From the NCBI GenBank assembly GCA_016198755.1, contig JACQIB010000004.1, positions 170,913 to 234,912 of the forward strand: DNA of 64,000 nucleotides, written 5' to 3'. Every line of letters starts with the position of its first letter. Position 1 is the first letter of the stretch. Source of the DNA: Candidatus Aenigmatarchaeota archaeon (GTDB lineage: Archaea > Aenigmatarchaeota > Aenigmatarchaeia > Aenigmatarchaeales > JACQIB01). The notes under the pieces were generated by a model. That model saw only the letters and a program-made list of their open reading frames with translations, was not told the origin of the DNA and ran no database searches. Made by a program: the position numbers and the translations under genes. Below, piece after piece: positions 3,492-52,427 of the stretch.

Positions 3492-3518
3492 GCTTTCCAT
3501 ACACAAACTACAGCTTAT

Positions 3519-3604
3519 GCCCGGGTAGCTCAGCAGGAAGAGCGACTGGCTGTTAAATTGCGGAAACCAGTAGGTCGCAGGTTCGAGTCCTGCCTCGGGC
3601 GCCA
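3519..3604 (+). tRNA. tRNA-Asn(GTT) candidate with an insertion of about 10 nt (mini-intron) in the anticodon arm
   Basis: The sequence parses as acceptor GCCCGGG/CTCGGGC; D-arm GCTC-AGCAGGAA-GAGC; anticodon stem ACTGG/CCAGT enclosing 17 nt (CTGTTA A ATTGCGGAAA); T-arm GCAGG-TTCGAGT-CCTGC; G73 and an encoded CCA. If the intron sits at the canonical 37/38 site, the anticodon loop is CTGTTAA (GTT). Confidence 0.65.
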
Positions 3605-3605
3605 A

Positions 3606-9251: not shown

Positions 9252-9851
9252 ATGATAGAGAAAAAACCTGTTGAAGCAAGAAAAGTAGTTCCGTTTAGAA
9301 TAGTTCCAAACACTCCTGGAGGATTAGGTGTGTATGTTAACAGTTCAATAGATAATCCAGATGGAGCAGAAATATCTGGTGAATTTTCCACTCTTTTACT
9401 GCCCAATATACGAGTAGAATCCGGTTCTGTATACGCAGTAGAAGGAACTAAAGCAATTTCGATGCTTCTAACAGGTCATGTGCCAAAGGGTGTAGATCTT
9501 ACAGAAATGTACATTGAAAAAGAACTTGCTGCTCAAGGACTTGGAACATATTACTTAAAAGTAGGGGATGTAAGCGATCATATAGACGTTTCATGGGCAA
9601 AGATGGGTACTCTAGATTTAACCCTTTCTACATATTGTCCAAGCCTTGATATGAGAAGGGGAATTTTTGATACACTAGACTTTGGGTATGATGTGAACAG
9701 AAAAGTTCGCGGGCTTGACTTGAGAAGCACTACAATAAAGAATGTAGAAGGTGTGTTGCCAGCTGACACATCTGATATACAAATGGATAAAAATACGAAT
9801 GTTCCTGAAAACTTAAGAGCATATTTGAAAAGAATGAGCGCTGTTATATAA
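9252..9851 (+). CDS. Hypothetical protein (199 aa). Its C-terminus (GVLPADTSD) weakly resembles the 40485-41072 paralog family.
   Basis: ORF; no motif. Confidence 0.4.
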   Translation: MIEKKPVEARKVVPFRIVPNTPGGLGVYVNSSIDNPDGAEISGEFSTLLLPNIRVESGSVYAVEGTKAISMLLTGHVPKGVDLTEMYIEKELAAQGLGTYYLKVGDVSDHIDVSWAKMGTLDLTLSTYCPSLDMRRGIFDTLDFGYDVNRKVRGLDLRSTTIKNVEGVLPADTSDIQMDKNTNVPENLRAYLKRMSAVI

Positions 9852-9880
9852 ACACGTAGGTTAGAATTAGTCTTTACAAA

Positions 9881-10204
9881 TCAAGCAGTGGACATAGGAA
9901 TTATGTTTTGAGGACCAGAAATAAATCTTCTTCCCATATTCGTTGGATAATAAATTTTAGACTTTCCTGAAGTACGCTTACCCTCGCCGCGTCTGCGATA
10001 CACATAATGTCCGCTTTCCAACTTTCTAACAATCTTATAAGTATAGCTTGGATCTTTTCCTAAACCTCGGCAAATATCAGGAACAGAACTGCTAGGGTTA
10101 TTTACTATATACCCAAGAACCTGCATCTCAACAGTACCAGTCCTTGGAACATATTTTACCATGAAAATAATTCGATAGAAAACCTTATTAAGCCTCCTTA
10201 ACAT
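9881..10204 (-). CDS. Winged-helix transcriptional regulator (PadR/MarR-like)
   Basis: LGYIVNNPSSSVPDICRGLGKDPSYTYKIVRKLESGHYVYRR resembles a wHTH recognition helix plus wing. Confidence 0.5.
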   Translation of the reverse strand: MLRRLNKVFYRIIFMVKYVPRTGTVEMQVLGYIVNNPSSSVPDICRGLGKDPSYTYKIVRKLESGHYVYRRRGEGKRTSGKSKIYYPTNMGRRFISGPQNIIPMSTA

Positions 10205-10206
10205 GC

Positions 10207-10995
10207 CTAAATCAGATTCACATCAGCTGTCCTTCTGGGCTCATATACATCCTCTTCTGAATAACCTTCCTGTAGAAAATCTCTTTCCAGTCTCCCACTC
10301 CACTTGAATTCCCCCCCAGTGTTAAAGCCCAATTTCTTTATTTTAGCCCTAGTGCCTATAGGCACAAATTCTTTAGCAAGCGGATTGAAACCTTTCTTTC
10401 TAACTGCTTTATGCAAAACAACCACATCCTCCAGAATACACTCCATAGCAGTTGGTTCTGTTATGTTCCTTTCAATTCTATATCTATAGGGCAAAACCAG
10501 CAATGGCAGTTGCCTGCTCATCATAGAACTCAATATTCCTGGGAGAAAATCATGCGATTGGAAGCTTGTCTCGTACATATCTCTCAGCTCTACCAAAGCA
10601 CGTGTATGAGGATTTGCAACCCACGGGTCAAATTTCATTTTGTCTCTTGAAAAATCATTTGCACCCATAAAATCATCAACATAAAATGGACGTATAATAC
10701 CAGCATCGTCCAGAACAGCATACACGCCAGGATATCGTGTCATCTCATCCTGTATTCTCATCTCCCCAATAGCCAGAATAACACCCCTGTTAACCAGCAA
10801 GGGTACTCCAGTTATCTTAGCTGGTCTTGACGAGCCTCTGTAAACTAATGAACCCGAACCTGAAGAAGTTTCTAATGCAGGCCCCATATCAGGCACAACA
10901 CCAAAAGTTACATTATAACCTTTCTGCACACTATTCTGCAAAAATGTTCTCATTCCCTTAATATCCCTGCTGCTTATGTCTACCATGAAATTCAA
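10207..10995 (-). CDS. Hypothetical protein (262 aa)
   Basis: Long ORF immediately downstream of the wHTH regulator gene (a 2-nt gap). No motif recognised. Confidence 0.45.
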   Translation of the reverse strand: MNFMVDISSRDIKGMRTFLQNSVQKGYNVTFGVVPDMGPALETSSGSGSLVYRGSSRPAKITGVPLLVNRGVILAIGEMRIQDEMTRYPGVYAVLDDAGIIRPFYVDDFMGANDFSRDKMKFDPWVANPHTRALVELRDMYETSFQSHDFLPGILSSMMSRQLPLLVLPYRYRIERNITEPTAMECILEDVVVLHKAVRKKGFNPLAKEFVPIGTRAKIKKLGFNTGGEFKWSGRLERDFLQEGYSEEDVYEPRRTADVNLI

Positions 10996-12212: not shown

Positions 12213-13955
12213 CTATAATAAAACCTTTGTACTCCTGAAAACCTTTTTCAGTTCTGTAAAAGGCAGGGTGTTTACAACATCCTTCTGCTCAAGCCAGCCT
12301 CTGCGCGCTGTTTTTATTCCCAGTTCAGTATACCAGAAAGTATTTTTATCATGTGAGTCTGTGTCAATTGCAAACTTGCAGTCGAATTCTCTTGCAAGCC
12401 TTATGTGATCATCCTTCAAGTCCAGCCTGTTTGGCTGCGAATCTATTTCTAAAACAACTCCCAGTTCAGCAGCTTTTGCAAAAACCTTTTTCAAATCCAA
12501 ATCAAAAGGCTTTCTCCGTGTTATTAACCTTCCTGTTGGGTGGCCCAAAATTGAAATTAATCCTGTTTCCATTGCTGCTAGCACGCGAGCAGTGATTTTT
12601 TCCTCCGGAGCTTTAAACCCTGAATGAATAGAACCAACAACAATATCCAGCTTTTTCAGCAAACTATCAGGATAGTCAAGAGATCCGTTTCCTTTAATGT
12701 CTACCTCACTTCCAGAAAGAATTTTTATTCCTTTAATTTTCTTCCTTGCCTCCTCTATTGCTTTCAGGTATTTTATCAGCCTCTCCTCGCTCATACCATG
12801 CGCTTGGTACTCTGATTTTGAATGGTCCGTTATTGCAATATACTCATACCCTAGGGATTTGGCTGCAAGAGCCATCTCCTCAATAGAATGGTTTCCATCA
12901 GACCAGTTTGTGTGCAAATGCAAATCCCCGCGGATATCGGAAAGTTTAACAAGTGCTGGCAGTTTTCCTGCAGCCGCAGCTTCAATCTCCCCATGATTCT
13001 CTCTCATCTCAGGCTCTATCCAGTGCAGCCCCAAAGTTTTGTAAACTTCCTCTTCTGTTTTTCCAGCCAATTGCTTTCCAGTTTTCCTGTCAAATAACCC
13101 ATATTCGGAGAGTTTATACCCCTTTGCAATAGCCATTGTCCTAAGCTCTACATTATGATCCATGTTTCCTGTAAAATACTGAAGAGCAGCTCCATAGCTT
13201 TCAGCTGGAAGTACCCTCAAGTCAGCCTGCAGCCCATTTTTCAGGACAACAGTGCTTTTTGTTGGCCCTTTAGAAAGAACCCTCCCAACTTCAGAAAGTG
13301 TTGTGAAAACTTCCATTACAGCAGCAGGCTTCCTGCTTATAACCAAAATATCCAAATCCCCCACAGTTTCCTTCCCCCTTCTTGTTGAACCAGCAATTTC
13401 CGCCTGTTCTACAGCCGGATTTTTCCTTAATTTTTCAACTATTTGCTTTGCAATCGGGAGCGCCTCGCCCAGCAAATAGCGTTCTTTGCTTTTCTTCAGC
13501 ATATCCACAGACTGCAGAATATTTTTTTCAGATTTTTCCCCGAAACCAGGCAAGTTTCTTAATTTCCCTGCTTTTGCAGCAGCAGCTAAATCCTGCACTG
13601 TTTTGACTTTTAGTTTCTTGTAAAGGAAAATAGCTTTCCTCGGCCCAATACCTTCCAGTTTCATTAGATTCATCAACCCTTCAGGTATCTTCTTTCCCAG
13701 CTGTTCTATCTTATTTATTCTTCCGGTTTTCAAATACTCCTCTATATTCGAGGAAATTGTTGCCCCAACCCCTGGTATCTCCTGCAGAGCTTTCACTCCC
13801 CCCTGCTTGTAAACTTCAGAAACCTCTGTAGGCAGGCTATCCAATACTCTGGCTACCTTCCTGTAAGCTATAGGCTCCCATTTTACTTCTAAAATATCCA
13901 GCATATCTGCTATTTCGTACAGCAGAGCAGCTATCTCTTTATTGGCTGAAGGCAT
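12213..13955 (-). CDS. polX: DNA polymerase X family protein with a C-terminal PHP phosphoesterase domain
   Basis: N-terminal HhH; nucleotidyltransferase motif GSTRRGKETVGDLDILV; C-terminal PHP motifs (LHLHTNWSDG, ITDHS). Confidence 0.9.
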   Translation of the reverse strand: MPSANKEIAALLYEIADMLDILEVKWEPIAYRKVARVLDSLPTEVSEVYKQGGVKALQEIPGVGATISSNIEEYLKTGRINKIEQLGKKIPEGLMNLMKLEGIGPRKAIFLYKKLKVKTVQDLAAAAKAGKLRNLPGFGEKSEKNILQSVDMLKKSKERYLLGEALPIAKQIVEKLRKNPAVEQAEIAGSTRRGKETVGDLDILVISRKPAAVMEVFTTLSEVGRVLSKGPTKSTVVLKNGLQADLRVLPAESYGAALQYFTGNMDHNVELRTMAIAKGYKLSEYGLFDRKTGKQLAGKTEEEVYKTLGLHWIEPEMRENHGEIEAAAAGKLPALVKLSDIRGDLHLHTNWSDGNHSIEEMALAAKSLGYEYIAITDHSKSEYQAHGMSEERLIKYLKAIEEARKKIKGIKILSGSEVDIKGNGSLDYPDSLLKKLDIVVGSIHSGFKAPEEKITARVLAAMETGLISILGHPTGRLITRRKPFDLDLKKVFAKAAELGVVLEIDSQPNRLDLKDDHIRLAREFDCKFAIDTDSHDKNTFWYTELGIKTARRGWLEQKDVVNTLPFTELKKVFRSTKVLL

Positions 13956-13957
13956 AA

Positions 13958-14215
13958 TTATCTATAAACCTCCTTTCTATGTTCAAACCTGAGCAATATT
14001 ATTTTATCTCCTTCAATAGAATAAATAAGCCTGTAGGGTTTAATGTATATTGTTCTCTCTCCCTTTAGATCATAACTAAGAGGTTTTCCAACTTCTGGCC
14101 TTTCGACAATCTTCTTTAACTGTTTTTTTATCTTCTCCTTAAGAGAACCATCCTTTATTTTTTTAATTTCTTCCTCAAATTTATCCGTTGGTATAATCAG
14201 CTTTATTTCTACCAT
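13958..14215 (-). CDS. RelE/ParE-family toxin
   Basis: 85 aa. C-terminal ILLRFEHRKEVY matches the RelE signature. Overlaps the upstream antitoxin gene by 7 nt. Confidence 0.7.
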   Translation of the reverse strand: MVEIKLIIPTDKFEEEIKKIKDGSLKEKIKKQLKKIVERPEVGKPLSYDLKGERTIYIKPYRLIYSIEGDKIILLRFEHRKEVYR

Positions 14216-14490
14216 TTTTCCAGCTCTTTAAAGAACTTTTCTTTAGTATAAATTTTATATCTGCCCTCTTCTATATCTTTCCATGCTTCCTCAACGAGCT
14301 TTAATGTTCTCAAATCTTCTTCTGTCATTTGTGTATTCAATTTTTTCAGAATAATAGTATCTTTTCTTGCGCTCACGGCAAATGAGCTACCTTCCCTTAT
14401 GCCAACCATCTTCCTTATATCACTTGGTATAACTATCTGTCCTTTTGAGCTGGCGCGTGTTATCTCAGGCAATATGCTCTGTTTTCTCAT
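14209..14490 (-). CDS. AbrB/MazE-type (SpoVT/AbrB swapped-hairpin) antitoxin
   Basis: GQIVIPSDIRKMVGIREGSSF is an AbrB-type DNA-binding motif. Genetically paired with the RelE gene. Confidence 0.65.
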   Translation of the reverse strand: MRKQSILPEITRASSKGQIVIPSDIRKMVGIREGSSFAVSARKDTIILKKLNTQMTEEDLRTLKLVEEAWKDIEEGRYKIYTKEKFFKELEKW

Positions 14491-14582
14491 ATATGTAAGA
14501 TATTCTTACTAGTATATAAATATATCCTATTAATATTAGAGAGGAACATAACTCTTATAAACCTTCCCTTCCCATTCTGCGC

Positions 14583-15008
14583 ATGGAAGAGCAATGCATA
14601 TTTTGTTCAATTGTAGAGGGAAAGATACCCGCCGCAATAATACATGAGGATGATGTTGGATTGGCTTTTCTGGATATAACTCCGGCAACAAAAGGGCATA
14701 CTGTACTTATTAGCAAAGAGCATTATGAGGATATTTTTTCTGTACCTTCTGAAAAACTTGAAAAACTTATTGTATTTGCAAAAGGGCTGATGGAGCATAT
14801 AAAAGAAAAACTTTCTGCCCAAGGATTCAATATGGAGAGTTTTATAGGGTCAGCCTCAGGTTCGATGATAAAGCATTTCTCTTTCCACTTAATACCCCGC
14901 TATGATGATGATGGACAGGAAAGGCCATTTGCAACGAGAATGAAGTTTGGGAGCAAAGAAGAGCTAACAAAGTATTTGGAAGAAACTGCTGAGAAAATAA
15001 CAGAATAA
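14583..15008 (+). CDS. HIT-family (histidine triad-like) hydrolase
   Basis: HIT-like fold signature KHFSFHLIPR, with the central His of the triad replaced by Ser; about 140 aa. Confidence 0.6.
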   Translation: MEEQCIFCSIVEGKIPAAIIHEDDVGLAFLDITPATKGHTVLISKEHYEDIFSVPSEKLEKLIVFAKGLMEHIKEKLSAQGFNMESFIGSASGSMIKHFSFHLIPRYDDDGQERPFATRMKFGSKEELTKYLEETAEKITE

Positions 15009-16418: not shown

Positions 16419-17117
16419 TCACTCAACAATCTTCTTTGATTCGCAGTTGTCTGTGCAGGGTTTTGGGATAAATTCCCTTAAAACCATTGTTTCACCCTTC
16501 ACTAGCTTTGAAAAATTTTCCTCAGCTTCGCGTGCCTTCTCTTTCAAAACCATTTTATAGTGCATTGGAATTGTAAGCTTTGCCTTAATAGTGTTAGCTG
16601 CCTCAGCAGCTTCCTCCACGCCCATTGTAAATTTTCCCCCCATTGGCAGGAGAGCAACATCTATGTTTTTCAATTCTCTCATCTCAGGGACAAAATCTGT
16701 GTCCCCAGCATGGTATAATCTGCCAGCAGGCAGGTTTAGAACAAACCCAACCCAGTTATTTGCACGTGGATGGAAGCTTAGCCTGTCTTCTTTAGTGTTG
16801 TAAGCAGGAATTGTCTCAACTTTAATACCGAAAATATTGTAGGTTTTTTGCGATTCAACTGGTATAAAACGTGCTGGAGAAACCAGTTCTTGCTGTAGGT
16901 TCGCAGGCCCAACCAGAACAGTCTCGGGCTTCAATATTCTTTTCAAATCCTGCTCACTAAAATGGTCATAGTGGGCATGGGTAATAAAAATCACATCAGC
17001 TTTCTCTTTTGTTTCAGGTATTTGAAACGGGTCTATATACAGGAAGTTTTTCTTGTTCAGGAAAATGGAAAAGGAAGCATGCCCAAACCAGCGCAGGTCG
17101 CGAAGTAAGTCTGACAT
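16419..17117 (-). CDS. Metallo-beta-lactamase-fold hydrolase
   Basis: HAHYDH metal-binding motif. Confidence 0.8.
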   Translation of the reverse strand: MSDLLRDLRWFGHASFSIFLNKKNFLYIDPFQIPETKEKADVIFITHAHYDHFSEQDLKRILKPETVLVGPANLQQELVSPARFIPVESQKTYNIFGIKVETIPAYNTKEDRLSFHPRANNWVGFVLNLPAGRLYHAGDTDFVPEMRELKNIDVALLPMGGKFTMGVEEAAEAANTIKAKLTIPMHYKMVLKEKAREAEENFSKLVKGETMVLREFIPKPCTDNCESKKIVE

Positions 17118-17164
17118 GAAACCTATTGGCGAAAAGGATATTTATAGGTTTGAACCTGCGCAAC

Positions 17165-17374
17165 TCAGCCGCTGCGGTTCATAACAAGTGATAAACTCTC
17201 ATTCAAAACACCCTTTACTGTTTCATTTACAGTGTGTGTTCCGAGAGTTGCTGTGTTCTGCAGGTTTAATGTTATCTGGGCGACAGCAACAAGCACAACA
17301 GCTGCAACCAAAAGCATTGCCAAGTACTTCAGAGGAAGGCCTTCTATTCCCTTTAAACGAAATACTTTCATCAT
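17165..17374 (-). CDS. Small pilin-like protein (possible class III signal peptide)
   Basis: MMKVFRLKGIEG followed by a hydrophobic stretch LAMLLVAAVVLVAVAQ. Immediately downstream of FlaJ. Confidence 0.4.
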   Translation of the reverse strand: MMKVFRLKGIEGLPLKYLAMLLVAAVVLVAVAQITLNLQNTATLGTHTVNETVKGVLNESLSLVMNRSG

Positions 17375-17379
17375 TTATA

Positions 17380-19173
17380 TCACGTCAAACTCTGCAGCAA
17401 TAGTATGCGCGTTGCCAATAATGTAACAGTAAAGACTATTAAAACCGCTGGAAATGATTCTGCCAGTTCAATACCGTTTGCAACAGGATCAGAACCCCAG
17501 CCTATCTTGCTAACATACCTTACAAGTACAAAGTTCAGTCCAATAGCATAAATCCCAACAATAAGTAAAAGTATATCAGGAGTTATGCTTGGTTTTGAAA
17601 TAAGTGTCGGACCTATGTTAGGAAGGTTCTGGGTTTGTATAGACTTTGTTATCATTTGAAAGAGCACAATTATAATTGAGGTTACAAGCGGGGAGAAAAC
17701 CAAAGCTGTTGCCTTCATCATTGTAAGGCTTTTTCTTAAAAGTTCTTTTATCCAGTCATCAACAGCATTCAACTTCTCTAGATAAGACAAAATAAGGGAA
17801 GCTGTGGAAGCTGCAGCAGCTGTTCCTCTGCTAAGGGAAGCTGCAATAAGTATAAGGAAAGACCTTATTAATTTTGAATCTATTTTCTCAAACTCAAGCG
17901 CTTTATTCAAAGGTAAGGAACCTGCACGCACTTTGTAAACAAGCCTGTCCAAAAGCCCTGCTATATCGCTCCCTTTGAGCAGTTTAGCTGTATAACTCAG
18001 AGCTTCTTCTATTGGCTTTCCCTCTGCAAGCTTGTTGCGTATATGGTAGAGAGCAGCAGGAAACTGTTCCTCTATCTTTCTAACCTCTTCCCGTTTTGCC
18101 TTGAACGGATAATAATTACTATAGTAGTAAACAAAAAACCCTATTCCAATACCCCATATTATAGGAAAAGTTGAGAGCGGCTTTACAGCAAGCAAAAACC
18201 ACTGGTTAATAATAACCCCAAAATAACCCAAAAGATAAACAAATCCCGGGAATGCAACCAGAAGGGAAAGCAAAATAGCAGCAGGCAAGCTTTTGTTTTC
18301 CAATTTGAACTCTATACCTCCCATTGAGGGGGGCCTTTTCCTGAGTATATGCTCTGAGTAAAGAAAGCTTGCAAAAAGCGTTGTAAAAAGGAAGAGAGAA
18401 GTTGGCAAAGGACCAACATCTGCCCCTAAAAACGATATTATTGGAAAGAGGGAGATTATCATTAGCGGGACGATTGTTCCTATACTGAAAAGCAAAAGTG
18501 TTGGTATATGCAGACCTGAAGCATACTCTTTTATTTTTGCTATCGTATCCTTCAAAAGCGTTTTTGTTGCCCTATCCAAATCCTTTATTTTAGCTTTTGG
18601 GTCAGACTCGCTGAAACTGGCTTCTATAAGAGAAACAGAAGACTGAAAAGCAGGGGAAAATTTCCCCCATTTCCTTCCAACTTTATCCAGTCCTTCCAAA
18701 GCATTCTTATACTTCCCAACAGCAACCTTCCAAACAGCTTTTTTCAGGTCATCAGCAACTAATCCAGTAGAATTCTCAGCTGCAAATTTCATTGCTCTCT
18801 CGGGTGAAGGGCTGCCTCTCAGGTATATGGAAAGCTGTGATAAAACTAAAGGAGCAGTACCCATGGCCTGCATAGCCTTGTCATTCGCAGCCATTTTAGG
18901 GTATTCTGTGAAAAGATAGAAAGTCAGGAAAGCTAAGGGAACTAAAAGTATAGTGTAGATTGGATTAAAGCCGAATAAAATAAATGAAAGAGACAATATT
19001 ATTGCTACTGTTGATAAAACAAGTAAATAAAAATAGCCGGCTCCTAATATTACCGCAGGCTCTGTTTTCAACTTTAACAATTTAGCAGCATTTATCAGTT
19101 CTTTGCTTGGCTCTGATTTTAACAGAGAACCTGGAAAACAGGCTTTATCAAAAAGGGAAATATAGTTAACCAA
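17380..19173 (-). CDS. FlaJ/TadC-like polytopic membrane platform protein of an archaeal type IV pilus
   Basis: 597 aa with two TM bundles separated by cytoplasmic domains. Overlaps the FlaI gene by 8 nt. Confidence 0.7.
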   Translation of the reverse strand: MVNYISLFDKACFPGSLLKSEPSKELINAAKLLKLKTEPAVILGAGYFYLLVLSTVAIILSLSFILFGFNPIYTILLVPLAFLTFYLFTEYPKMAANDKAMQAMGTAPLVLSQLSIYLRGSPSPERAMKFAAENSTGLVADDLKKAVWKVAVGKYKNALEGLDKVGRKWGKFSPAFQSSVSLIEASFSESDPKAKIKDLDRATKTLLKDTIAKIKEYASGLHIPTLLLFSIGTIVPLMIISLFPIISFLGADVGPLPTSLFLFTTLFASFLYSEHILRKRPPSMGGIEFKLENKSLPAAILLSLLVAFPGFVYLLGYFGVIINQWFLLAVKPLSTFPIIWGIGIGFFVYYYSNYYPFKAKREEVRKIEEQFPAALYHIRNKLAEGKPIEEALSYTAKLLKGSDIAGLLDRLVYKVRAGSLPLNKALEFEKIDSKLIRSFLILIAASLSRGTAAAASTASLILSYLEKLNAVDDWIKELLRKSLTMMKATALVFSPLVTSIIIVLFQMITKSIQTQNLPNIGPTLISKPSITPDILLLIVGIYAIGLNFVLVRYVSKIGWGSDPVANGIELAESFPAVLIVFTVTLLATRILLLQSLT

Positions 19174-21749: not shown

Positions 21750-22832
21750 CTACCTGCGTTTCCAAGCCCTAGAGCCTTTAAGTCCGTGCGGAAATCCTGG
21801 GCGCGGGAAAGCTCTCCAAACACCCATTACACCATCCACTTTCCTTATCTCATTTCTGTGGAACCTGCTTACTTCCCTAGCTATTGCAGGTACATCACCA
21901 TTATACCAAGCATCCACAGCAGGTTGGAGCAAATATTTTGCTCTTCCAATTGAGCTTCTGCGTTGATGTGTAACGTTTGATAAAGAAACCCTGATAATTG
22001 GATTTTGTGATGCCATGATATTCGATCTTACTATCCAGCGATATGGTTTCACATTATCAACACGAATATGGTCAACATAACGCTGCATCATTCTGAGAGA
22101 AAAATGATCGAATATGTTGTATAGACTTCCCATTAAGTCCAGAAAAGTTCCGTTAGTGGAATATTCAACATTCTTTATATTGAGTCCTGTATTTAATCTC
22201 AAAAAATCTAATTCATCTTTTGCATCCATAGAAACGCTGGGGTGATAAATTGTTCTTTTTACGTCTTCACTGACAACTCCAACTTGTAACCTGTCGCTTG
22301 CATGTAAATCCCTGTTGCCAACCAACCCCAAGCTCCAAGCATAGGCAACAGCTTTTGTAAGATTGTCTATACTAAACTCTTTATCAGCAAAATCCTCTTC
22401 CATTGCTGGTAAAACATGGGTTTTTGCAGAACCTCCGCATGTATATTCTAACGGCCCACTAAAATCAACACCAGATGATTTACGTAATTCTATCTTGTAA
22501 ATCTCCGGATCACCGTTATGGAAATTGTTGCCTACAATTATTAGCGTACAGTGGAGATCTCTTTTTTTAGAGGCTTCTCCCCGCGCTATAGCCACAGCAG
22601 AAAAGTACGGTGACATCCCCTTACTGAAATATACCGGATTATTCAATAATTCTTGTATATAATCTACACTTCCAGAACTCACAACCAACGAACCGCCACA
22701 GTGATATAGTTTTTGTCTACCATTATACTTATGGTCAGAACCATTGGCCAAGTCATCTGCTACTACAACGGCATGTTTTGCCCTTGCATTTGTAGTTGGT
22801 ACAGTAAATGTAAATGCAGCTATATTAGTCAT
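21750..22832 (-). CDS. Proteasome-beta/HslV-like Ntn-hydrolase homolog (Thr2 directly after Met) with a roughly 170-aa C-terminal domain of unknown function
   Basis: MT-NIAAFTF; VVVADD..GS (Asp17-like); GRQKLYHCGG (Lys33-like); LIIVGNNFHNGDPEIYKI and CGGSAKT (GSG-loop-like). Paralog of 43736-44758. Confidence 0.5.
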   Translation of the reverse strand: MTNIAAFTFTVPTTNARAKHAVVVADDLANGSDHKYNGRQKLYHCGGSLVVSSGSVDYIQELLNNPVYFSKGMSPYFSAVAIARGEASKKRDLHCTLIIVGNNFHNGDPEIYKIELRKSSGVDFSGPLEYTCGGSAKTHVLPAMEEDFADKEFSIDNLTKAVAYAWSLGLVGNRDLHASDRLQVGVVSEDVKRTIYHPSVSMDAKDELDFLRLNTGLNIKNVEYSTNGTFLDLMGSLYNIFDHFSLRMMQRYVDHIRVDNVKPYRWIVRSNIMASQNPIIRVSLSNVTHQRRSSIGRAKYLLQPAVDAWYNGDVPAIAREVSRFHRNEIRKVDGVMGVWRAFPRPGFPHGLKGSRAWKRR

Positions 22833-23285: not shown

Positions 23286-24041
23286 TTAAGCTTTTTGAGA
23301 AGCGTATTTTCCAGCTAAGCTGTTCAGTCTTATCTTAAGTATATCCAGAAACATTTTTGGCACATCCCTTATTACTGAAAGCTTGCTCTCTCCCTTATCA
23401 ACCCAGCGCACAGGAACCTCCTTTATTTTCATTTCCTTCTTTTTGGCTATAAACAATAACTCTGTATCAAAAGCAAACCCAAAAATACTCTGCTTTCTCA
23501 CTATATCTTTGGCAAGCTCTGTTTTAAACAGTTTAAACCCACACTGGGTATCTCTTATTCCAGGCAAAAGTAACAGCCTTACAATCAGTGGAAAGCTCTT
23601 CCCTGCAAACTGCCTGTGCAAAGGCTGTTTCACAACAATATCCGACTCCGGAAGGTTTCTTGAGGCTATAACAACATCATATTCCTTTGTATACTGCAAA
23701 AATTTTCCCAGCTCTTCTATTGAGGTTGCCAAATCAGCATCCATGAACAGAACAAACTGATATTTTGCCTCTAAAATACCTGTGTGTACAGCAAACCCCT
23801 TTCCCATGCGCTTTTCATTGTTAATTATTCTTACCCCCTTCCCAAATTCCTTGACAATTTCAGGTGTATGGTCCCCTGAATAATCGTTTACAACAATAAC
23901 CTCAAACTTTTCAAAATTCTTTTTACAAAAGGCTAGAACAGACTCTAAACAAGCCCTAATCCTTGTCTCTTCCCTGTAAGTCGGGATAACTATAGACATG
24001 TCCATAGAACTATAGGCTGGGAAAATAGCTATATAAACCAT
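23286..24041 (-). CDS. GT2 glycosyltransferase (dolichyl-phosphate mannose/glucose synthase-like)
   Basis: IVIPTYREE...VIVVNDYSGDHT...MDADL motifs of GT-A fold GT2 enzymes. Confidence 0.85.
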   Translation of the reverse strand: MVYIAIFPAYSSMDMSIVIPTYREETRIRACLESVLAFCKKNFEKFEVIVVNDYSGDHTPEIVKEFGKGVRIINNEKRMGKGFAVHTGILEAKYQFVLFMDADLATSIEELGKFLQYTKEYDVVIASRNLPESDIVVKQPLHRQFAGKSFPLIVRLLLLPGIRDTQCGFKLFKTELAKDIVRKQSIFGFAFDTELLFIAKKKEMKIKEVPVRWVDKGESKLSVIRDVPKMFLDILKIRLNSLAGKYASQKA

Positions 24042-24875: not shown

Positions 24876-25005
24876 TGGTGGACTCGGTGGGATTTTCTCC
24901 AAACCCTTTTGGGGTTTGCAAAGACCTTTTCGGAAAAGGGATTTGCTTTGAACCCACAACCTCTTGCTTGCAAAGCAAGCGATCTTCCAGTTGATCTACG
25001 AGCCC
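24876..25005 (-). tRNA. tRNA-Ala(TGC) with a roughly 54-nt intron in the T-loop (non-canonical position about 59/60); CCA encoded
   Basis: The minus strand reads GGGCTCG TA GATC AACTGGAA GATC G CTTGC TTTGCAA GCAAG AGGTT GTGGG TTCAAA[G-intron-T] CCCAC CGAGTCC A CCA. The exons assemble into a perfect 76-nt cloverleaf. Confidence 0.8.
24904..24953. repeat. 50-nt sequence identical to 52268-52317 (core of the T-loop intron shared by tRNA-Ala and tRNA-Leu)
   Basis: Exact match: cccttttggggtttgcaaagaccttttcggaaaagggatttgctttgaac. Confidence 0.9.
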
Positions 25006-29912: not shown

Positions 29913-30701
29913 TCATGCTAGAAGCTTCGAAAAAGGTTTTATAATATTAATCAACTTATACACTGATTGATTAACAAGAACATCATTATATTCTTCCTTT
30001 ACAATATCTATAGCATCTTTTTGTATATTGCCTTCTAATATTGCTATCAATCTTACATAGGGATATTTTTGTCGAATTTTCATAGCTCTATAAGCAAGTT
30101 CTACGGCTTGCAAACGTTTCCTATAATTGAAATTCATTTGCTTTACCTCAATTATTATTTTGGGTATATTTTCAGAAGGCAAGGCAAAATCTACTACAAA
30201 ATTTCTATTGGTCCTCACTAGGGCATGAAACTTATGTGAAATGCCCAATTTCTGAAAGATTTCTATATATCTTTTTTCTTGTTCTGTAGGACCTTTTATT
30301 ATTGCACCTTTCAGAGATCTTTCTTTAGACGCCTTTAAACTCATTTTTCTTGCGCGTTCAGTATCTCTAAAAGTGCCGCGTTCGGAAATTTCATAATACC
30401 TGCGTATTAAGATTTCCCTAGAAGGAATTCTTTGCATGCATTTAATTTCTTCAAACACTTTGTTTATTACTTTTTCGTCTACACTTTTTCTAAATCCTTT
30501 CTCTATATTATAGACTGTGCCTTGACTCTTCCCTATAAACTTTGCTAATTGCCACTGACTCATATTCAATATTAAACGTAGAATCAGCAATCTCTGCGGT
30601 TTTGTATATATAATTTCAGGTTTCAGTTTCCTTAAACTGTCTGTTGTTCTATATACTTCATCACAGAGATTTTTTAATTTTAGCTTGTTTATGGTAATCA
30701 C
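29913..30701 (-). CDS. Intron-encoded putative homing endonuclease: N-terminal XRE-type HTH plus C-terminal PD-(D/E)XK nuclease-like domain (262 aa)
   Basis: HTH MSQWQLAKFIGKSQGTVYNIEKG; nuclease motif FVVDFALP...IIIEVKQ (D...E-x-K). Sits entirely inside the rRNA intron, with the stop overlapping the exon junction. Confidence 0.55.
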   Translation of the reverse strand: MITINKLKLKNLCDEVYRTTDSLRKLKPEIIYTKPQRLLILRLILNMSQWQLAKFIGKSQGTVYNIEKGFRKSVDEKVINKVFEEIKCMQRIPSREILIRRYYEISERGTFRDTERARKMSLKASKERSLKGAIIKGPTEQEKRYIEIFQKLGISHKFHALVRTNRNFVVDFALPSENIPKIIIEVKQMNFNYRKRLQAVELAYRAMKIRQKYPYVRLIAILEGNIQKDAIDIVKEEYNDVLVNQSVYKLINIIKPFSKLLA

Positions 30702-30757
30702 CGATATTATATTATATCGGTAACTACTATTTAACCCTTTACAGAGCTTCTAACTTT
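29916..30757 (-). mobile_element. 16S rRNA intron (about 840 nt) in the 3' domain, carrying an HTH + PD-(D/E)XK ORF
   Basis: Exon sequence ...GGCGAACGTCAT is interrupted and resumes ...GAATTCGTTCGCCGAATACGTCCCTG (the equivalent of E. coli position about 1360-1380). Confidence 0.7.
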
Positions 30758-31059
30758 ATGACGTTCGCCTACTATGAATTCCGGCTTCATGTGGGCGAGT
30801 TGCAGCCCACAATCTGGACTAAGATTGGGTTTAGGGGGTTAGCTTTGCCTTTCGGCATTGCATCCCATTGTCCCAACCATTGTAGGACGCGTGTAGCCCA
30901 GAGAATTCGGGCCGTACGGACCTACCGTCGCCCACTCCTTCCTCTGCTTTAGCAGCAGCGGTCCCGCCATTGTGCTCTCTCCCCGGAGGGAAAGGTGGCA
31001 AATGGCAGCGTGGGTCTCGCTCGTTAACGGACTTAACCGCACGCCTCAAGGTACGAGCT

Positions 31060-31219
31060 TTCTCGTCTTAGCAGCCCTCATACAAAACATTATCTTACTT
31101 TTCTCTATGTTTTACATAATTAGCATTCCACCAACGTCGTATCAGTATTAAGTTTGAATACTGGTTGCATATCGTTGTTGAAATTTTTCAATATCCCAAT
31201 TAAATTGAGACTGCCAAGA
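31060..31219 (-). other. Insertion of about 155 nt (ORF-less intron, likely BHB-type) in the 16S near the E. coli 1050-1070 region
   Basis: The conserved CATGGCCGTCGTCAGCTCGTACC is split: ...catggccatcgtca | 150 nt AT-rich | agctcgtaccttgagg. Flanking cttggcag/ctgctaag can pair to close the insert. Confidence 0.6.
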
Positions 31220-31763
31220 TGACGATGGCCATGCAACTCCTCTCAGCTTGTCTGGTAAACCCGTTAGGCTGACCCTCATTCTGCTGTCTTCTCTGGTAAG
31301 ATGTCCGGTGTTAAATCCAATTGAACCGCATCCTCCACTCATTGTGTGTTCCCCCGCCAATTCCTTTAAGTTTCAGCCTTGCGGCCGTACTCCCCAGGTG
31401 GCCCGCTTAACATCTACACTTCGGCACTGCATGTTCACGTAGAACGTGCAACACCAAGCGGGCATCGTTTACGGCTGGGACTACTGGGGTATCTAATCCC
31501 AATCGCTCCCCCAGCTGTCGCCCCTCACTGTCAGACTCGTTTTCGGTAGACGCCTTCGCCACAGGTGGTCCTCCACGGATTAAAGGATTTAACCCCTACA
31601 CGTGGAATACCTCTACCGTCTCCCGATCTCAAGGCTTGGAGTATCTCCAGCGCGCCTGACAGTTAGCTGCCAGATTTCACCAGAGACTTTCAAGCCCAGC
31701 TACGGGCGCTTTAGACCCAATAAACGCGATAGCCATTTGGACCGCGGGTATTACCGCGGCGGC

Positions 31764-31795
31764 GTGTGCGAACAAAGTCTACTGACTTTGAACAT
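31764..31795 (-). other. Hairpin insertion of about 30 nt inside the universal 515F/530-loop sequence of the 16S
   Basis: GTGCCA | tgttcaaagtc-agtag-gactttgttcgcaca | CGCCGCCGCGGTAATAC. The insert forms a 7-bp perfect stem, caaagtc/gactttg. Confidence 0.6.
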
Positions 31796-32249
31796 GGCAC
31801 CCGTCTTACCCAGTCCTTATTCGCCTAGGTTTTTAGCCTAAGCAAAAGCTCGTGCAAAGCACGAGCACTCGAGGTTCCCTTCTCACACGCTAATGCATTG
31901 GAAAGTTTTCGCTCCTGCTGCGACCCGTAGGCCCTGCGCTCATGTCTCAGAGCGCATCTGGAGGCTCACACTCTCATGTCCCCTACCCGTCACAGGCTTG
32001 TCAGTTTTATAAAGCAGGTAGCTTATGCTACCAAAAATTATTTTGGCAAACTAAGTTTGCCTATGCACTTTACACTGACAACAACCTGATAGGCCGCAGT
32101 CCCATTCTATGGCGCCGGAGCTTTCACTTTTGGTGCATTCCAGCATCCAAAAACTATGGGGCATTAGCCTCACTTTTGCGTTCACTTTCAAAAGAAAGTG
32201 GAATTCGCAAGATTATTCCCCACCATAGAGTAGGTTAACTACGTGTTAC

Positions 32250-32921
32250 TCAGCAGTGCGCCGAGGGCAAGAGCGGATTAAATAGAACCTTACCAGTCTT
32301 TTTACAATAAAAATAGTTTTTAAATTCCTTAGAAAGACATCTTACTTTTTCTAACTTTAGTGGATGTTTAAATTTTATTATTCTACAAAACTTTCTAAAA
32401 TTTTTAGCACCTTTTATTCGCCACCAATATACATCGTTTTTTCCATAAACTTTTGATACATGAATACCATATGTTTCTAATAATTCTTTACTCCATATGC
32501 AAAAATCCTTAGATTTAATTTGTAGTTCTATTACAGGATATTCATATATAGACATCATGGTCTTTCTCTTATACCTTTGGACTTCTTTGAATACGGAACA
32601 ATCACCATCAAAAAATCCTATAAGAAAATTCATCTTTTCTTTTCTATTTATGTGCACTGGTGGAGTGATGTCATGAGACTTTTTCCCTGGTTTTATATGA
32701 TAAAGTCTCTTAAATTTTTCGTATAGCTTACGATCACTTACCCTTATCTGAAATACTCTTTTTCTTAATTTGTAAGTAACCTTGTTTTTTGCAAATTTTT
32801 GAAGATTTTTTACTATATCATCTCTGAAGCGCTTGTTATTTGTGTAGACATAGACATACGGTCTATATTTTTCTAAATGACCATCTGCAGCTATTAAACC
32901 GGCCATATAAGAAAATTTCAT
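32250..32921 (-). CDS. LAGLIDADG-family homing endonuclease (double-motif, intron-encoded)
   Basis: Two LAGLIDADG motifs are present: MAGLIAADGHL and LIGFFDGDCSV. Confidence 0.85.
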   Translation of the reverse strand: MKFSYMAGLIAADGHLEKYRPYVYVYTNNKRFRDDIVKNLQKFAKNKVTYKLRKRVFQIRVSDRKLYEKFKRLYHIKPGKKSHDITPPVHINRKEKMNFLIGFFDGDCSVFKEVQRYKRKTMMSIYEYPVIELQIKSKDFCIWSKELLETYGIHVSKVYGKNDVYWWRIKGAKNFRKFCRIIKFKHPLKLEKVRCLSKEFKNYFYCKKTGKVLFNPLLPSAHC

Positions 32922-32992
32922 ATATTATTCTATGACGATATACAACTTATAGATTTCTATGTTTCGTTAGTAGTGTTCTACTTAATCCTTTA
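32277..32992 (-). mobile_element. 16S rRNA intron (about 715 nt) near the 5' end (after ...CATGCGAGCCGAGAGGGG), carrying a LAGLIDADG endonuclease ORF
   Basis: Exon resumes ...CCGCTCTTGCCCTCGGCGCACTGCTGAGTAACACGT. The ORF reads through the 3' junction to a TGA stop inside the exon. Confidence 0.75.
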
Positions 32993-33474
32993 CCCCTCTC
33001 GGCTCGCATGGATAAATCGAACCCCGATAACGGCTATCTCCGGCAGGATCAACCGGAATTAAATTAGGGGGGATTTCACAAACCTAATGGTTTGCGTTCC
33101 CTGTTTTCTTACTCGGAGTTTCGCTAACATCAGCCACGACTTCTAATCATGAACTCATCCGCACCCGCGCGCGCTTCCAAATTTCCCTCGCACTGGTCCG
33201 CTCATTGCTGCGTAAGCAGCTCGTTTGTATTTTTTCCCACAGGTTGGAACTGGGATGCTCATAGCGAGTTTACACTCTTGCTTGCAGCCCACACAGAAAG
33301 AGATGGAACAGCAGCGCCGTACCATTCATTTTGCCTGTGAGTACAGACTATAATAGCGTTATCGAAGGCTTTTAAAGGTTACTGCGGATGCCGTTGGCTG
33401 GGGTTTAAAAGGTTTTCTTACGACCACTTTCTTATGGCAACCTCAAAACCACAGCCACAATACATGTTTTTGCC

Positions 33475-38388: not shown

Positions 38389-38548
38389 TGGGGCCCGGAC
38401 CGAGATTTTCCCGCCCCACCTGAGGGGGTAGGGCTGTAGGGGGAAACTTCCCCCTGAGCTTTGAACTCGGGTCTAGGGCTGTCTGCTCCGCACGCCTTAA
38501 GCGCGCTGGGCCACAGGCCCACATGCTAACCACTACACCATCCGGGCC
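38389..38548 (-). tRNA. tRNA-His(GTG) with a genome-encoded G-1 and two introns (about 30 nt after position 37; about 54 nt in the T-loop); CCA encoded
   Basis: The minus strand reads G(-1) GCCCGGA TG GTGT AGTGGTTA GCAT G TGGGC CTGTGG [30-nt intron] A GCCCT AGAC CCGAG TTCAAAG [54-nt intron] CTCGG TCCGGGC C CCA. G-1:C73 is the hallmark of tRNA-His. Confidence 0.7.
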
Positions 38549-39501: not shown

Positions 39502-39957
39502 ATGGCTCTTTCAGCACAAAGGTTGATGCCACCAGAGCCCAGAAGGGTGGCACCTATCACACCTGCAGAGCTGACAGATAGAGAAAGATTTGGCTGGCTT
39601 TACTCACCTCCGCGTGGAAAAACAGTTGGATTTGAGTATATAGAAGGGGATAAGTTTTGTCTTGTAGTTGGTGAATTAAGTTACAGAAAACCGCCAAAAT
39701 ATTCTACAAGAAAACCATATTCTATAGATGTTACATTTGCAAAATACGAAGGTAGGGTACTTGGAGATGTGCTGGACAATACTTCTGCACGCATAGCTCC
39801 GGAAGGGCTTTTGTTCCGTTCGCATACCCCTGTTCATCTGTCCAGAGATACATTTTTGGAAAAGGTGCAGACTGTGAAGGGAATTATCAAAGGGACTAAT
39901 GAACAGATAGATTATTTTGAAGGTATAGTTGAGGGAGAAAGATTTGCAGCAGACTAA
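39502..39957 (+). CDS. Hypothetical protein, member 1 of a tandem three-gene paralog family (151 aa)
   Basis: Shares GK(T/N)VG(F/I)(E/A)Y, CL(V/L)xVG and ID(V/Y)x(F/L)(A/K)(K/F)(Y/A)(E/N)G blocks with 40485-41072. C-terminal DTFLEKV resembles 39992-40471 (ADFLREV). Confidence 0.5.
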   Translation: MALSAQRLMPPEPRRVAPITPAELTDRERFGWLYSPPRGKTVGFEYIEGDKFCLVVGELSYRKPPKYSTRKPYSIDVTFAKYEGRVLGDVLDNTSARIAPEGLLFRSHTPVHLSRDTFLEKVQTVKGIIKGTNEQIDYFEGIVEGERFAAD

Positions 39958-39991
39958 TGGTTTATTAACCTTTTCTATTGAATAGGATTCT

Positions 39992-40471
39992 ATGGGTATG
40001 GGAGGTTGGGGCATTTGGTTTGCCTTAAAAACTGCTGCAGAACAGGAAACAGCTACTAAGGCAAAATATGAAGTGGTGTTCCCTATAGCTGACATTTTAA
40101 GGCCAGCAGAATATGAGAGGTTCATAAATTGGGTAGGTCATAGGGCAGTTGGAGTTGGTTATGTTAATCCAGACCCTACTATGCCGCAGATGCAACTTGC
40201 AGTTGGTAAACTATCTACTATAGCTCCAACGGGAGGAAAACAGGACATTTCACTTAATTTTGATGGGGAAGGAACAGTGCTTTCAGCAGGTAGTATTTTT
40301 CACTCCGGAACAATGGAACTCCCTAAAAACACTCCTGTATATACGGGAAAGGCAGATTTTCTGCGAGAGGTAAGGAAACTGGACCCGCTTGTAAATTCTA
40401 GAAGGGTTGTGAGAGAACCTTATGAAGCGTTTATGAAAAAAGTGGAAGAGAGCAGGTTCCCGTTCCAGTAG
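39992..40471 (+). CDS. Hypothetical protein, member 2 of the tandem paralog family (159 aa)
   Basis: C-terminal similarity to member 1; same strand with a 35-nt spacing. Confidence 0.45.
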   Translation: MGMGGWGIWFALKTAAEQETATKAKYEVVFPIADILRPAEYERFINWVGHRAVGVGYVNPDPTMPQMQLAVGKLSTIAPTGGKQDISLNFDGEGTVLSAGSIFHSGTMELPKNTPVYTGKADFLREVRKLDPLVNSRRVVREPYEAFMKKVEESRFPFQ

Positions 40472-40484
40472 TTTCTGGAAAGTA

Positions 40485-41072
40485 ATGGGTTTTTATCCTT
40501 TCTTATATAATAACTTTCTTATGGGAATTCTTGGTTGGAGGAATGGAACGCGACACGAGCCTAGGACAAAGCCAACCAATGGACAGACAGCAGTCAATTA
40601 TCAGCAAAAACTTTATGTTAGCTCTCTGCTGGATCAAGCAAACCAACCAGCCTATAGGCAGCGGCTTGTTGGGAAAAATGTTGGAATTGCATACGAACAA
40701 CCTTCTGGAACAGAACCCTGTTTACTTTCTGTTGGAACAGTTATGACACCGCCAGAAGGTGTTATGCCTTGGAGACATATAAATAAAGATGGGATAGATT
40801 ATGTTGAACTAAAGTTTGCAAATGGTATTTCTGTAGATAGGAATAGACTGAAAGTTAATGTTACTGCAGTAAAGGCCGATACTGTTGGGGTAAATGCTGA
40901 TACTAGTGCAGAACCGTTCCTGCCAAGTGCTGTTATTTGTACTAGGAGAAAGGAATTCGCAGATTTAGCTGACAGAGTTGCTGGACTTATAATGCGAGAT
41001 ATGACTATGCAAGTTAGAATGGAGGATTATTATACTATACTGAATAAAGCCAATAAAGATCTGGAAATATAA
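40485..41072 (+). CDS. Hypothetical protein, member 3 of the tandem paralog family (195 aa)
   Basis: Motif similarity to member 1; 13-nt spacing from member 2. Confidence 0.5.
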   Translation: MGFYPFLYNNFLMGILGWRNGTRHEPRTKPTNGQTAVNYQQKLYVSSLLDQANQPAYRQRLVGKNVGIAYEQPSGTEPCLLSVGTVMTPPEGVMPWRHINKDGIDYVELKFANGISVDRNRLKVNVTAVKADTVGVNADTSAEPFLPSAVICTRRKEFADLADRVAGLIMRDMTMQVRMEDYYTILNKANKDLEI

Positions 41073-44758: not shown

Positions 44759-45219
44759 GCCTGTTTAACCTGCTCAGCTAACAAAGGCTTTTTTCCGCCG
44801 AGCAAAACAATTATTTTGTCTGCAAAATCCTTAACTTCACTCTCTCCGGCAGATGTTAGAACTTTCTCACTGTCTTTTGGTATTCCGGCAGAATTTAACA
44901 GGGAAACTGCAGTACCGCTGGCTGCAACAATTTTCCCTGCATCAAAAAAATCCTTTGCCATTTTAACGGCTGCAGGGTTATTTTCCAGTCCTATAAAACC
45001 CGGAGAACAGCCAATAAAAACAACACCATCATACTCGTTTACCCTAACCTCTTCCAGCCTCATGTTAGGTAGATAGCTTTCCCCTTTCAAAGAAACAAGA
45101 GAAGTCTTCTGCGGCCCGCAAACAAGCTGCAGAATACCTGCGGCATCTATAAGCTTGCGCAGCTCAAAGAACTCTGCATCCGGAAACCCGCGCTGGGGGG
45201 TAATTTCTATTATTAGCAT
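44755..45219 (-). CDS. DJ-1/PfpI-family (class I glutamine amidotransferase-like fold) protein
   Basis: 154 aa with a DJ-1-like central beta-sheet pattern (DGVVFIGCSPG...AKDFFDAGKIVAASGTAVSLL). Confidence 0.65.
   Translation of the reverse strand: MLIIEITPQRGFPDAEFFELRKLIDAAGILQLVCGPQKTSLVSLKGESYLPNMRLEEVRVNEYDGVVFIGCSPGFIGLENNPAAVKMAKDFFDAGKIVAASGTAVSLLNSAGIPKDSEKVLTSAGESEVKDFADKIIVLLGGKKPLLAEQVKQA
45127..45187. repeat. Copy 1 of a 61-bp perfect direct repeat (lies inside the 5' end of the DJ-1 gene)
   Basis: ctgcagaatacctgcggcatctataagcttgcgcagctcaaagaactctgcatccggaaac is identical to 48854-48914. Confidence 0.95.
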
Positions 45220-48853: not shown

Positions 48854-48914
48854 CTGCAGAATACCTGCGGCATCTATAAGCTTGCGCAGCTCAAAGAACT
48901 CTGCATCCGGAAAC
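48854..48914. repeat. Copy 2 of the 61-bp perfect direct repeat
   Basis: Exact duplicate of 45127-45187, located between the beta-helix protein gene and the LmbE-like gene. Confidence 0.95.
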
Positions 48915-52243: not shown

Positions 52244-52427
52244 TGGTGCGGGAGGCAAGATTTTCAGCCCTTTTGGGGTTTGCAAAGACCTTTTCGGAAA
52301 AGGGATTTGCTTTGAACTTGCGTAGGGACTAACCCACTAGGTTTCTCATGCAGGTCTCTGAGCAACGCCTGCTCCTAAGCTTCGCTTAAATCATCTAGCG
52401 CCTTTGACCTGGCTGGGCCACTCCCGC
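52244..52427 (-). tRNA. Type II tRNA (Leu; anticodon TAG or GAG depending on intron parse) with at least two introns: one or two in the anticodon arm (about 44 nt total) and about 48 nt in the T-loop; CCA encoded
   Basis: Acceptor GCGGGAG/CTCCCGC with A73 plus CCA. D-arm TGGCCCAGCCAGGTCAAAGGCG is Leu-like. Long variable arm GGGTTAGTCCC. T-arm GCAAG-TTCAAAG[intron]-CTTGC. A CTTAGGA anticodon-loop-like heptamer is present in the interrupted anticodon region. Confidence 0.65.
52268..52317. repeat. 50-nt sequence identical to 24904-24953 (shared tRNA T-loop intron core)
   Basis: Exact match. Confidence 0.9.

Follow-up and report, generated by a model that had tools for sequence, protein, structure and literature searches.

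The 64,000-nt stretch of DNA analysed here, referred to below as the window, has a G+C content of 39.8%, includes an archaeal 16S rRNA gene detected by Rfam, and comes from an uncultured DPANN archaeon of the Aenigmarchaeota, and not from the Thermoproteales; its RtcA and GT2 proteins match, at 100% identity, NCBI entries named Candidatus Aenigmarchaeota archaeon. A scan for acceptor stems and T-arms located four tRNA genes with an encoded CCA, for tRNA-Asn, tRNA-Ala, tRNA-His and a class-II tRNA-Leu (Table 1), and in three of the four (Ala, His and Leu, all on the minus strand) the T-loop is interrupted between positions 59 and 60. The T-loop of all three interrupted genes reads TTCAAAT, and that of the uninterrupted tRNA-Asn gene reads TTCGAGT. 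In the raw sequence of the window ARAGORN calls one tRNA only and none of the Ala, His and Leu genes, and Rfam finds the same single tRNA together with a partial match to the Ala gene (24936-24998). The names "Phe(gaa)", "Ser(tga)", "Lys(ttt)" and "Asp(gtc)" that ARAGORN assigns to partly spliced versions of the interrupted genes are artefacts of its single-intron model. One other candidate T-arm, at 17093-17159, was rejected as a tRNA, since it is part of a small ORF and the promoter region of that ORF.

Table 1. The tRNA genes of the window and the sequences that interrupt them
Feature	Position	Strand	Remarks
tRNA-Asn(GUU)	3519..3604	+	internal control; 10-nt anticodon-loop intron 3556-3565 only; T-loop intact
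tRNA-Ala(UGC), 130 nt	24876..25005	-	CCA encoded; G3:U70; exons 24947-25005 and 24876-24892; identified by ARAGORN after splicing
Family A intron at 59/60 of tRNA-Ala, 54 nt	24893..24946	-	43-nt core 24904-24946 (two hairpins), then tail TTTGGAGAAAA
tRNA-His(GUG)	38389..38548	-	G-1 at 38548; exons 38511-38547, 38460-38480 and 38389-38405
Canonical 37/38 intron of tRNA-His, 30 nt	38481..38510	-	
Family C intron at 59/60 of tRNA-His, 54 nt	38406..38459	-	G+C-rich; two hairpins; 3' end GGGAAAA
Class-II tRNA-Leu, 184 nt, three interruptions	52244..52427	-	exon 1 52395-52427; exon 3 52311-52342; 3' exon 52244-52260
Family A intron at 59/60 of tRNA-Leu, 50 nt	52261..52310	-	same 43-nt core (52268-52310), then tail CTGAAAA
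Anticodon-region insert of tRNA-Leu, 52 nt	52343..52394	-	two alternative 7-nt middle exons

An earlier note on this DNA had observed that 50 nt of the Ala and Leu introns are identical. The repeat is indeed exact (24904-24953 = 52268-52317, with two copies in the window as compared to none in 100 shuffles), but in gene orientation its first bases are GTTCAAA, i.e., G53 and T-loop positions 54-59 of the exon (24947-24953 and 52311-52317), and only then continues into 43 nt of intron (24904-24946 and 52268-52310); as seven of its 50 bases are exonic, the length attributed to the introns was slightly too high. The same note had proposed that a perfect tRNA-Ala(TGC) requires the removal of about 54 nt from the T-loop and that the Leu gene is interrupted at the equivalent place, and both proposals agree with what ARAGORN recognises: tRNA-Ala(tgc), with G3:U70, after deletion of the 54 nt, and tRNA-Leu after deletion of the 50-nt T-loop intron along with the inserts in the anticodon region. 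Once the 54-nt T-loop intron is deleted from the third gene, ARAGORN calls tRNA-His(gtg), with G-1 encoded and a canonical 37/38 intron of 30 nt. For this gene the note was right that a different intron occupies the same site and wrong about a shared ending, since only the His intron ends in ...GGGAAAAT; the 3' end that the 59/60 introns of Ala, Leu and His have in common is GAAAA^T (here and below, a caret marks a splice site). Altogether, removal of the inserts restores canonical cloverleaves for Ala(tgc), His(gtg), Leu(tag/cag) and, in a related genome described below, Val(tac), and leaves the identity elements G3:U70 of tRNA-Ala and G-1:C73 of tRNA-His intact.

The 59/60 introns of the window and its relatives are 50-57 nt in length and fall into three otherwise unrelated families, A, B and C, which are alike in plan: two hairpins followed by a short variable tail that ends in (U/G/A)GAAA(A/C). 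In each of the 13 gene copies GAAA(A/C) stands before T60. The site itself corresponds to position 6/7 in a 7-nt loop on a 5-bp stem, and the canonical 37/38 site has the same geometry. In MFE folds of the T-arm with its intron, the T-stem is predicted to be lengthened by a helix of 3-4 bp between U54-U55-C56(-A57) and the intron sequence (U)GAA, with a 3-nt bulge, AA^U60, on the 3' strand that contains the 3' splice site, and with the 5' splice site, A59^N, in a loop at the base of hairpin 1. The earlier note had held that its reading would fall if no plausible BHB or BHL could be folded at the junctions. Such a BHL is part of the MFE structure in eight of the nine distinct T-arm precursors; in the ninth, that of tRNA-His in the window, it costs 1.6 kcal/mol relative to the MFE. 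Compared with dinucleotide shuffles, each of the nine has the better fold (z between -2.0 and -3.4). For the window's tRNA-Ala precursor the MFE structure combines the T-stem, a UUC/GAA helix and an AAU bulge (z = -2.39). The central helix of the window's tRNA-Leu, UUCA/UGAA, is a perfect 4 bp, and that of the window's Ala and His genes and of several other copies is just 3 bp, with an A·A or A·G mismatch. As predicted by these folds, the junction motif is of the relaxed hBH/BHL kind and not of the strict 3-4-3 form. A lenient BHB scanner produces many chance matches in any tRNA, so that BHB matches alone are weak evidence, and we have placed the weight on the quality of the spliced products and on the MFE folds. 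A group I or homing-endonuclease intron was rejected on the grounds that the inserts are 50-57 nt long and without an Rfam match even at E <= 10; the core of a group I ribozyme exceeds about 200 nt. Readings of the repeated core as a C/D-box RNA, a K-turn or a CRISPR repeat were likewise rejected by eye, as the core has neither a C box nor a tandem G·A motif and has no Rfam match.

The comparison covered 22 loci outside the window (L-numbers below). Syntenic loci of three relatives were fetched by way of homologues of the window's RtcA (50157-51212) and GT2 (23286-24041) proteins and are compared here with the window genome (W): R1, which is pieced together from several unbinned ENA and JGI contigs (86% identity to the window in RtcA and 90% in GT2); R2, assembly GCA_053536735.1, with both loci on one contig (82% and 75%); and R3, assembly GCA_053529795.1 (81% and 70%). 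The exons of tRNA-Ala and tRNA-Leu are 100% identical in all four genomes, and in the Leu gene this identity extends over the first 117 nt, i.e., everything 5' of the T-loop intron, as well as the 17-nt 3' exon. At 59/60 these same genes carry different families: tRNA-Ala has family A in W and R1 and family B in R2 and R3, tRNA-Leu has family A in W and R2 and family B in R1 and R3, and tRNA-His, which was not recovered for R2 and R3, has family C in W and family A in R1. Family B (e.g., TGGGGAGAAACTACGTATCTCCC...GGCGGAAAA) is unrelated to family A save for the terminal GAAAA, and the pairing of its second hairpin is kept with changed sequences (CAUCCU/AGGAUG, CCUCUC/GAGAGG, CCCUC/GAGGG); these compensatory changes were read from individual folds, as MAFFT alignments of families A and B misalign the hairpins because of indels.

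An exact search with a 29-mer of the family A core gave no match in 185,579 representative genomes, which means that the representative of this species lacks the core or that the species is not included among them, and matched only two contigs, L002 and L003, in JGI metagenomes. L002 carries the same core at 59/60 of a tRNA-Val(UAC) gene that adjoins an uninterrupted tRNA-Ala(GGC) gene. L003 is syntenic with 38.4-40.7 kb of the window at 75-83% nucleotide identity and holds the R1 orthologue of tRNA-His, in which family A stands in place of the G+C-rich intron of the window. This R1 gene (L003 157-342, minus strand; L006 276-461, minus strand) also has an extra 26-nt D-loop intron that is absent from the window gene, and its 37/38 intron is unlike the window's at many positions, with a hairpin predicted in both. 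A homologue search with the HAD protein encoded beside tRNA-His returned itself and matches of 37% identity or less, which are useless for synteny.

In sum, genes for four tRNAs (Ala, Leu, His and Val) contain family A, and those for two (Ala and Leu) contain family B. A diverged core of family A (CCCTTTTC-GCA-GAAAAGGTCT ... CCCCAAAAGG), about 75% similar, is found in a 66-nt D-loop intron, in the 16/17 region, of tRNA-Tyr(GUA) in L005 and L012, whose RtcA proteins are about 70% identical to that of the window, and it is the single example of the family at another tRNA position. The tRNA-Tyr(GUA) gene (L005 1907-2059, minus strand; L012 5937-6089, minus strand) requires the removal of an 11-nt insert at 25/26 as well, and the exon directly before its D-loop intron reads CTCAAC, which resembles TTCAAA of the T-loop. 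The possibility that the repeat belongs to a larger family with no tie to tRNAs, raised in the earlier note, finds no footing in the window and the 22 loci, where a tolerant pattern detected 11 copies of family A, all of them inside tRNA genes and in sense orientation, and none outside tRNA genes. A MITE-like dispersed repeat was rejected on the same evidence of location and single orientation. A degenerate three-block pattern of the core had no match in viral contigs, and there is hence no sign of a viral carrier. The Logan short-read contig L016 ends inside the repeated core, at the equivalent of window position 52288; introns of this type fragment assemblies at tRNA genes.

The relationships among the introns are incongruent with those among the host genes and genomes. 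The tRNA-Leu intron of the window equals the tRNA-Ala intron of R1 at 49 of 50 positions, tail included, and the tail of the window's own tRNA-Ala intron differs; likewise, the family B intron in tRNA-Ala of R2 is nearer to that in tRNA-Leu of R3 than to that in tRNA-Ala of R3. Taken with the different families at one site of orthologous Ala, Leu and His genes, and with the occurrence of family A in tRNA-Val and, in diverged form, in the D-loop of tRNA-Tyr, these comparisons of sequence support the view of the earlier note that we are dealing with a mobile tRNA intron. The explanation that we favour as a whole, and consider likely, is that these are 59/60 introns spliced by an EndA-type enzyme and that tRNA genes have exchanged the families with one another, as have alleles of related strains.

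An alternative to which we assign a minor share of probability is that there has been no recent ectopic movement, that the introns are old and vertically inherited with a core under strong selection (e.g., as a stable or circular intron RNA or as a protein-binding site), and that families A and B are an ancestral polymorphism shuffled by recombination between strains. It draws support from the 43-nt core, which is invariant in five genes and one or two bases off in two more, next to tails that differ, and which persists in recognisable form in the genomes with about 70% RtcA identity. It is also in keeping with the fact that every orthologue of Ala, Leu and His recovered already has a 59/60 intron: no orthologue with an empty site was found, empty TTCAAAT T-loops being seen in other genes only, such as the Ala(GGC) gene of L002, and the events documented here are therefore replacements and not insertions into empty sites. 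Around tRNA-Leu, moreover, the four genomes group differently for each segment (W with R3 in the 5' flank, W with R2 in the intron, R2 with R3 in the 3' flank), so that allelic recombination, between strains and within the conserved exons, probably accounts for part of the patchiness. Strict vertical descent at every locus cannot account for the 43-50 nt that Ala, Leu, His and Val genes have in common, since identical introns beside differing T-stems call for transfer between genes, at least one for each gene. The near identity of the W-Leu and R1-Ala introns, which extends to a tail that the orthologous W-Ala intron does not share, counts against it too, as do the several independent replacements implied by one site that holds C or A in tRNA-His and A or B in tRNA-Leu and tRNA-Ala.

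Far less probable is a reading of the inserts as small non-autonomous mobile elements or integration scars in tRNA pseudogenes. That the inserts are repeated, that one assembly breaks inside the core and that standard tRNA finders miss the genes would all fit such a reading, but the exons have remained fully conserved in four genomes while the flanks diverged, a promoter-like AAGGCTTTTATT box is retained upstream of the Leu gene, and removal gives perfect cloverleaves, G3:U70 and G-1:C73 included. The inserts are moreover confined to a single phosphodiester position and never lie in antisense orientation, and each of them ends in a tail complementary to the T-loop. The window does come from a MAG and short-read assemblies do break at the repeat, but a chimeric assembly or binning artefact as the source of the identical 50-mer is scarcely credible when the same gene structures, each with its own tail variants, appear in independent NCBI, ENA, JGI and Logan assemblies.

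Returning to introns that move between genes, we infer that the T-loop inserts are removed by splicing, and the structure of the junctions suggests how they could be at home in more than one tRNA. The GAA of the intron tail (often UGAA) would pair with U54-U55-C56(-A57) and stack on the T-stem; both splice sites would then be cut by EndA and the exons joined by an RtcB-type ligase. The sequence U54-U55-C56(-A57) is near-universal in the T-loops of tRNAs. The intron would in this way supply its own half of the recognition helix, with the conserved T-loop as the partner strand, and the same intron would be expected to work in any T-loop that reads TTCAAAT and to be spliceable wherever the T-loop has TTCA; such a portable half-helix with a universal counterpart would explain why the Ala, Leu, His and Val genes hold identical copies. 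The limits of the shared segment are at the splice sites or within 7 nt of them (GTTCAAA on the left, GAAAATC on the right), so that the moving unit is essentially the intron as the splice sites define it. A process directed by the splice sites or by RNA structure is thereby favoured, such as reverse splicing followed by reverse transcription; conversion at the level of DNA on microhomology is another candidate route of transfer.

The RtcA gene of the window (plus strand) lies about 1 kb upstream of the tRNA-Leu gene with three introns. RtcA is the RNA 3'-phosphate cyclase and not the ligase. The neighbourhood, consisting of RtcA, an AAA-like protein of 323-325 aa, tRNA-Leu, thioredoxin and RmlA, is kept in W and in R1, R2 and R3. 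A scan of 30 ORFs of the window with Pfam found none with an EndA domain, nor was a ligase gene seen, and the relaxed-specificity splicing endonuclease that the earlier note took the introns to imply is a suggestion that comes from the literature: Kaneta et al. (PMC5829648) report that the alpha4 EndAs of several DPANN lineages carry an additional L3 loop, associated with a larger number of disrupted tRNA genes, and the present case appears consistent with that report.

In the anticodon region of the tRNA-Leu gene, the BHB scan indicates that the 52-nt insert could be processed in two ways. Removal of 14 and 31 nt around the middle exon GCTTAGG (52374-52380) gives a form with anticodon UAG, and removal of 31 and 14 nt around the middle exon GCTCAGA (52357-52363) gives a form with anticodon CAG. 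For the first, a strict 3-4-3 BHB (CGCU/AGCG, with bulges AG^A and AA^G) would take out 14 nt and join CUAG to GCUUAGG; for the second, another BHB (CGCU/GGCG, with bulges AG^A and UU^G) would take out 31 nt and join CUAG to GCUCAGA. Ahead of each module stands a separate complement to CGCU (tRNA nt 25-28) with two further bases (AGCG-AA^ and GGCG-UU^). Only one UGAG lies before the common 3' site, AA^A38, and it is able to pair with nt 32-35 of either module (CUUA or CUCA). The two products, CUAGG-CUUAGGA-CCUAG and CUAGG-CUCAGAA-CCUAG, form perfect anticodon arms and are both recognised as tRNA-Leu by ARAGORN, and the folds that would produce them are mutually exclusive. The unconstrained MFE structure of the whole 184-nt precursor (-58.5 kcal/mol) matches the UAG conformer exactly and contains the two BHBs as well as the T-arm BHL; the CAG conformer, in which the UAG module is buried in a 7-bp hairpin, is predicted at -56.5 kcal/mol, 2 kcal/mol higher. 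With criteria that were set post hoc, a second valid module arose by chance in 1,256 to 2,261 of 2,000,000 randomised loops (0.06-0.11%), and one with a Leu anticodon in 376 to 773 of 2,000,000 (0.02-0.04%). The 5' part of the gene is invariant in the four genomes, as compared with a His 37/38 intron that differs between W and R1 and gene flanks that have diverged, and the codon CUG is common here (21 per 1000). There is no tRNA-Leu beside RtcA in L004, L005, L012, L013 and L022, from genomes with about 70% RtcA identity. Our default reading is of a tRNA-Leu(UAG) gene with three introns; that it encodes a bistable precursor, from which two isoacceptors (UAG and CAG) would be made by alternative splicing in cis, is a tentative proposal from these folds that is rather less likely to be right than wrong.

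Introns of this general kind are already known, and four systems invite comparison. For Thermoproteales, the similarity of introns across tRNA species has been interpreted as the outcome of transposition on a large scale (Fujishima 2010, Mol Biol Evol 27:2233, as cited in PMC4090602 and PMC4033280). As far as these citing papers, from which the families of that study are known here, describe them, the two cases are alike in that the similarity of the introns is incongruent with the tRNA bodies and genes with several introns are common. They differ in that the host is here a DPANN archaeon of about 40% G+C as opposed to a hyperthermophilic crenarchaeote, that three unrelated families here compete for one site, 59/60, and that replacement between orthologues of close relatives is here seen directly. 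The second system is ARMAN-2, in which a 59/60 intron with an hBH motif is cleaved in vitro by the organism's own EndA (PMC3239211), an enzyme of the epsilon2 type in ARMAN-2 / Candidatus Micrarchaeum, and tolerance of relaxed motifs depends on an EndA of broad specificity (PMC3239211, PMC3488258). ARMAN-2 shares with the present lineage its DPANN affiliation, the 59/60 position and the relaxed hBH motif, with cleavage demonstrated for its intron and the present introns known from sequence. The ARMAN-2 example is 13 nt long and sharing between tRNAs was not reported for it, whereas the introns described here are 50-57 nt long, have two hairpins and form families.

The heterogeneity of a tRNA-Thr locus in Caldiarchaeum subterraneum has been described as a snapshot of intron gain (PMC3293823), and there too related genomes or populations vary in the intron content of one tRNA gene; the element in that case is 1.8 kb long, encodes a recombinase and is accompanied by gene splitting, whereas the unit of exchange here is a 50-nt intron with no protein-coding element. 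In Nanoarchaeum and Caldivirga, split and tri-split tRNAs share pieces that give rise to synonymous isoacceptors (PMC4033280). The likeness is to the Leu modules only, as one tRNA body is combined with alternative anticodon pieces by way of BHB junctions, but in those archaea separate transcripts are joined in trans, and the Leu modules lie in tandem in one gene, where the choice would be made by folding in cis. Our literature search found these trans-spliced jigsaw tRNAs (PMC4033280) and no cis alternative splicing of a tRNA, and it found no paper describing introns of the present type for Aenigmarchaeota. What is new is the lineage, the alternation of three families at one site among close relatives with identical exons, and the design of two hairpins plus a T-loop-complementary tail.

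Selfish elements of other kinds appear to be common in this lineage. The 16S rRNA gene of the window (30689-33059, minus strand) extends beyond its Rfam match, with a canonical 5' end, ATTCCGGTTGATCCTGCCGG, at 33040-33059; its 5' domain is split by an insertion of ~700 nt with a LAGLIDADG ORF (32250-32921) and no group I intron match, and the gene has another three inserts, all short (30, 62 and 39 nt) and hairpin-forming. Near the Ala locus of R2 (GCA_053536735.1), five LAGLIDADG-type ORFs lie in a row (L020 1914-6689) in what is probably an rRNA gene, one that looks heavily colonised by endonuclease-bearing introns. In L009 of the same genome, a 651-aa dTDP-glucose dehydratase-like gene has an intein match and a LAGLIDADG-like ORF adjoins RmlA (16631-18586 and 13832-14704). 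Elsewhere in the window, an exact direct repeat of 61 nt (45127-45187 and 48854-48914) brackets the gene for a 1170-aa beta-helix (NosD-like) surface protein; a PIG-L-like ORF (48882-50144) starts with the second copy, and because the relatives lack this ORF here, an insertion or duplication of recent date is suggested. ORFs of 150-360 aa without a Pfam match occur at 2586-4505, 9252-10995, 21750-22832, 39502-41072 and 43736-44758; those at 21750-22832 and 43736-44758 are similar by eye, and at 39502-41072 three small ORFs that resemble one another lie in succession.

Three of the four tRNA genes of the window are missed by standard finders, and for this reason the tRNA counts reported for DPANN MAGs may run low, to the point that their tRNA complements may be badly under-counted. 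If the dual-anticodon reading of the Leu gene is true, it would be the first case of cis alternative splicing of a tRNA. For the spread of archaeal tRNA introns more generally, the four close Aenigmarchaeota genomes, with their identical exons, three alternating families and boundaries within 7 nt of the splice sites, offer snapshots of the process, and they suggest a rule of portability by which pairing of its 3' tail with the universal T-loop would make an intron functional in any tRNA.
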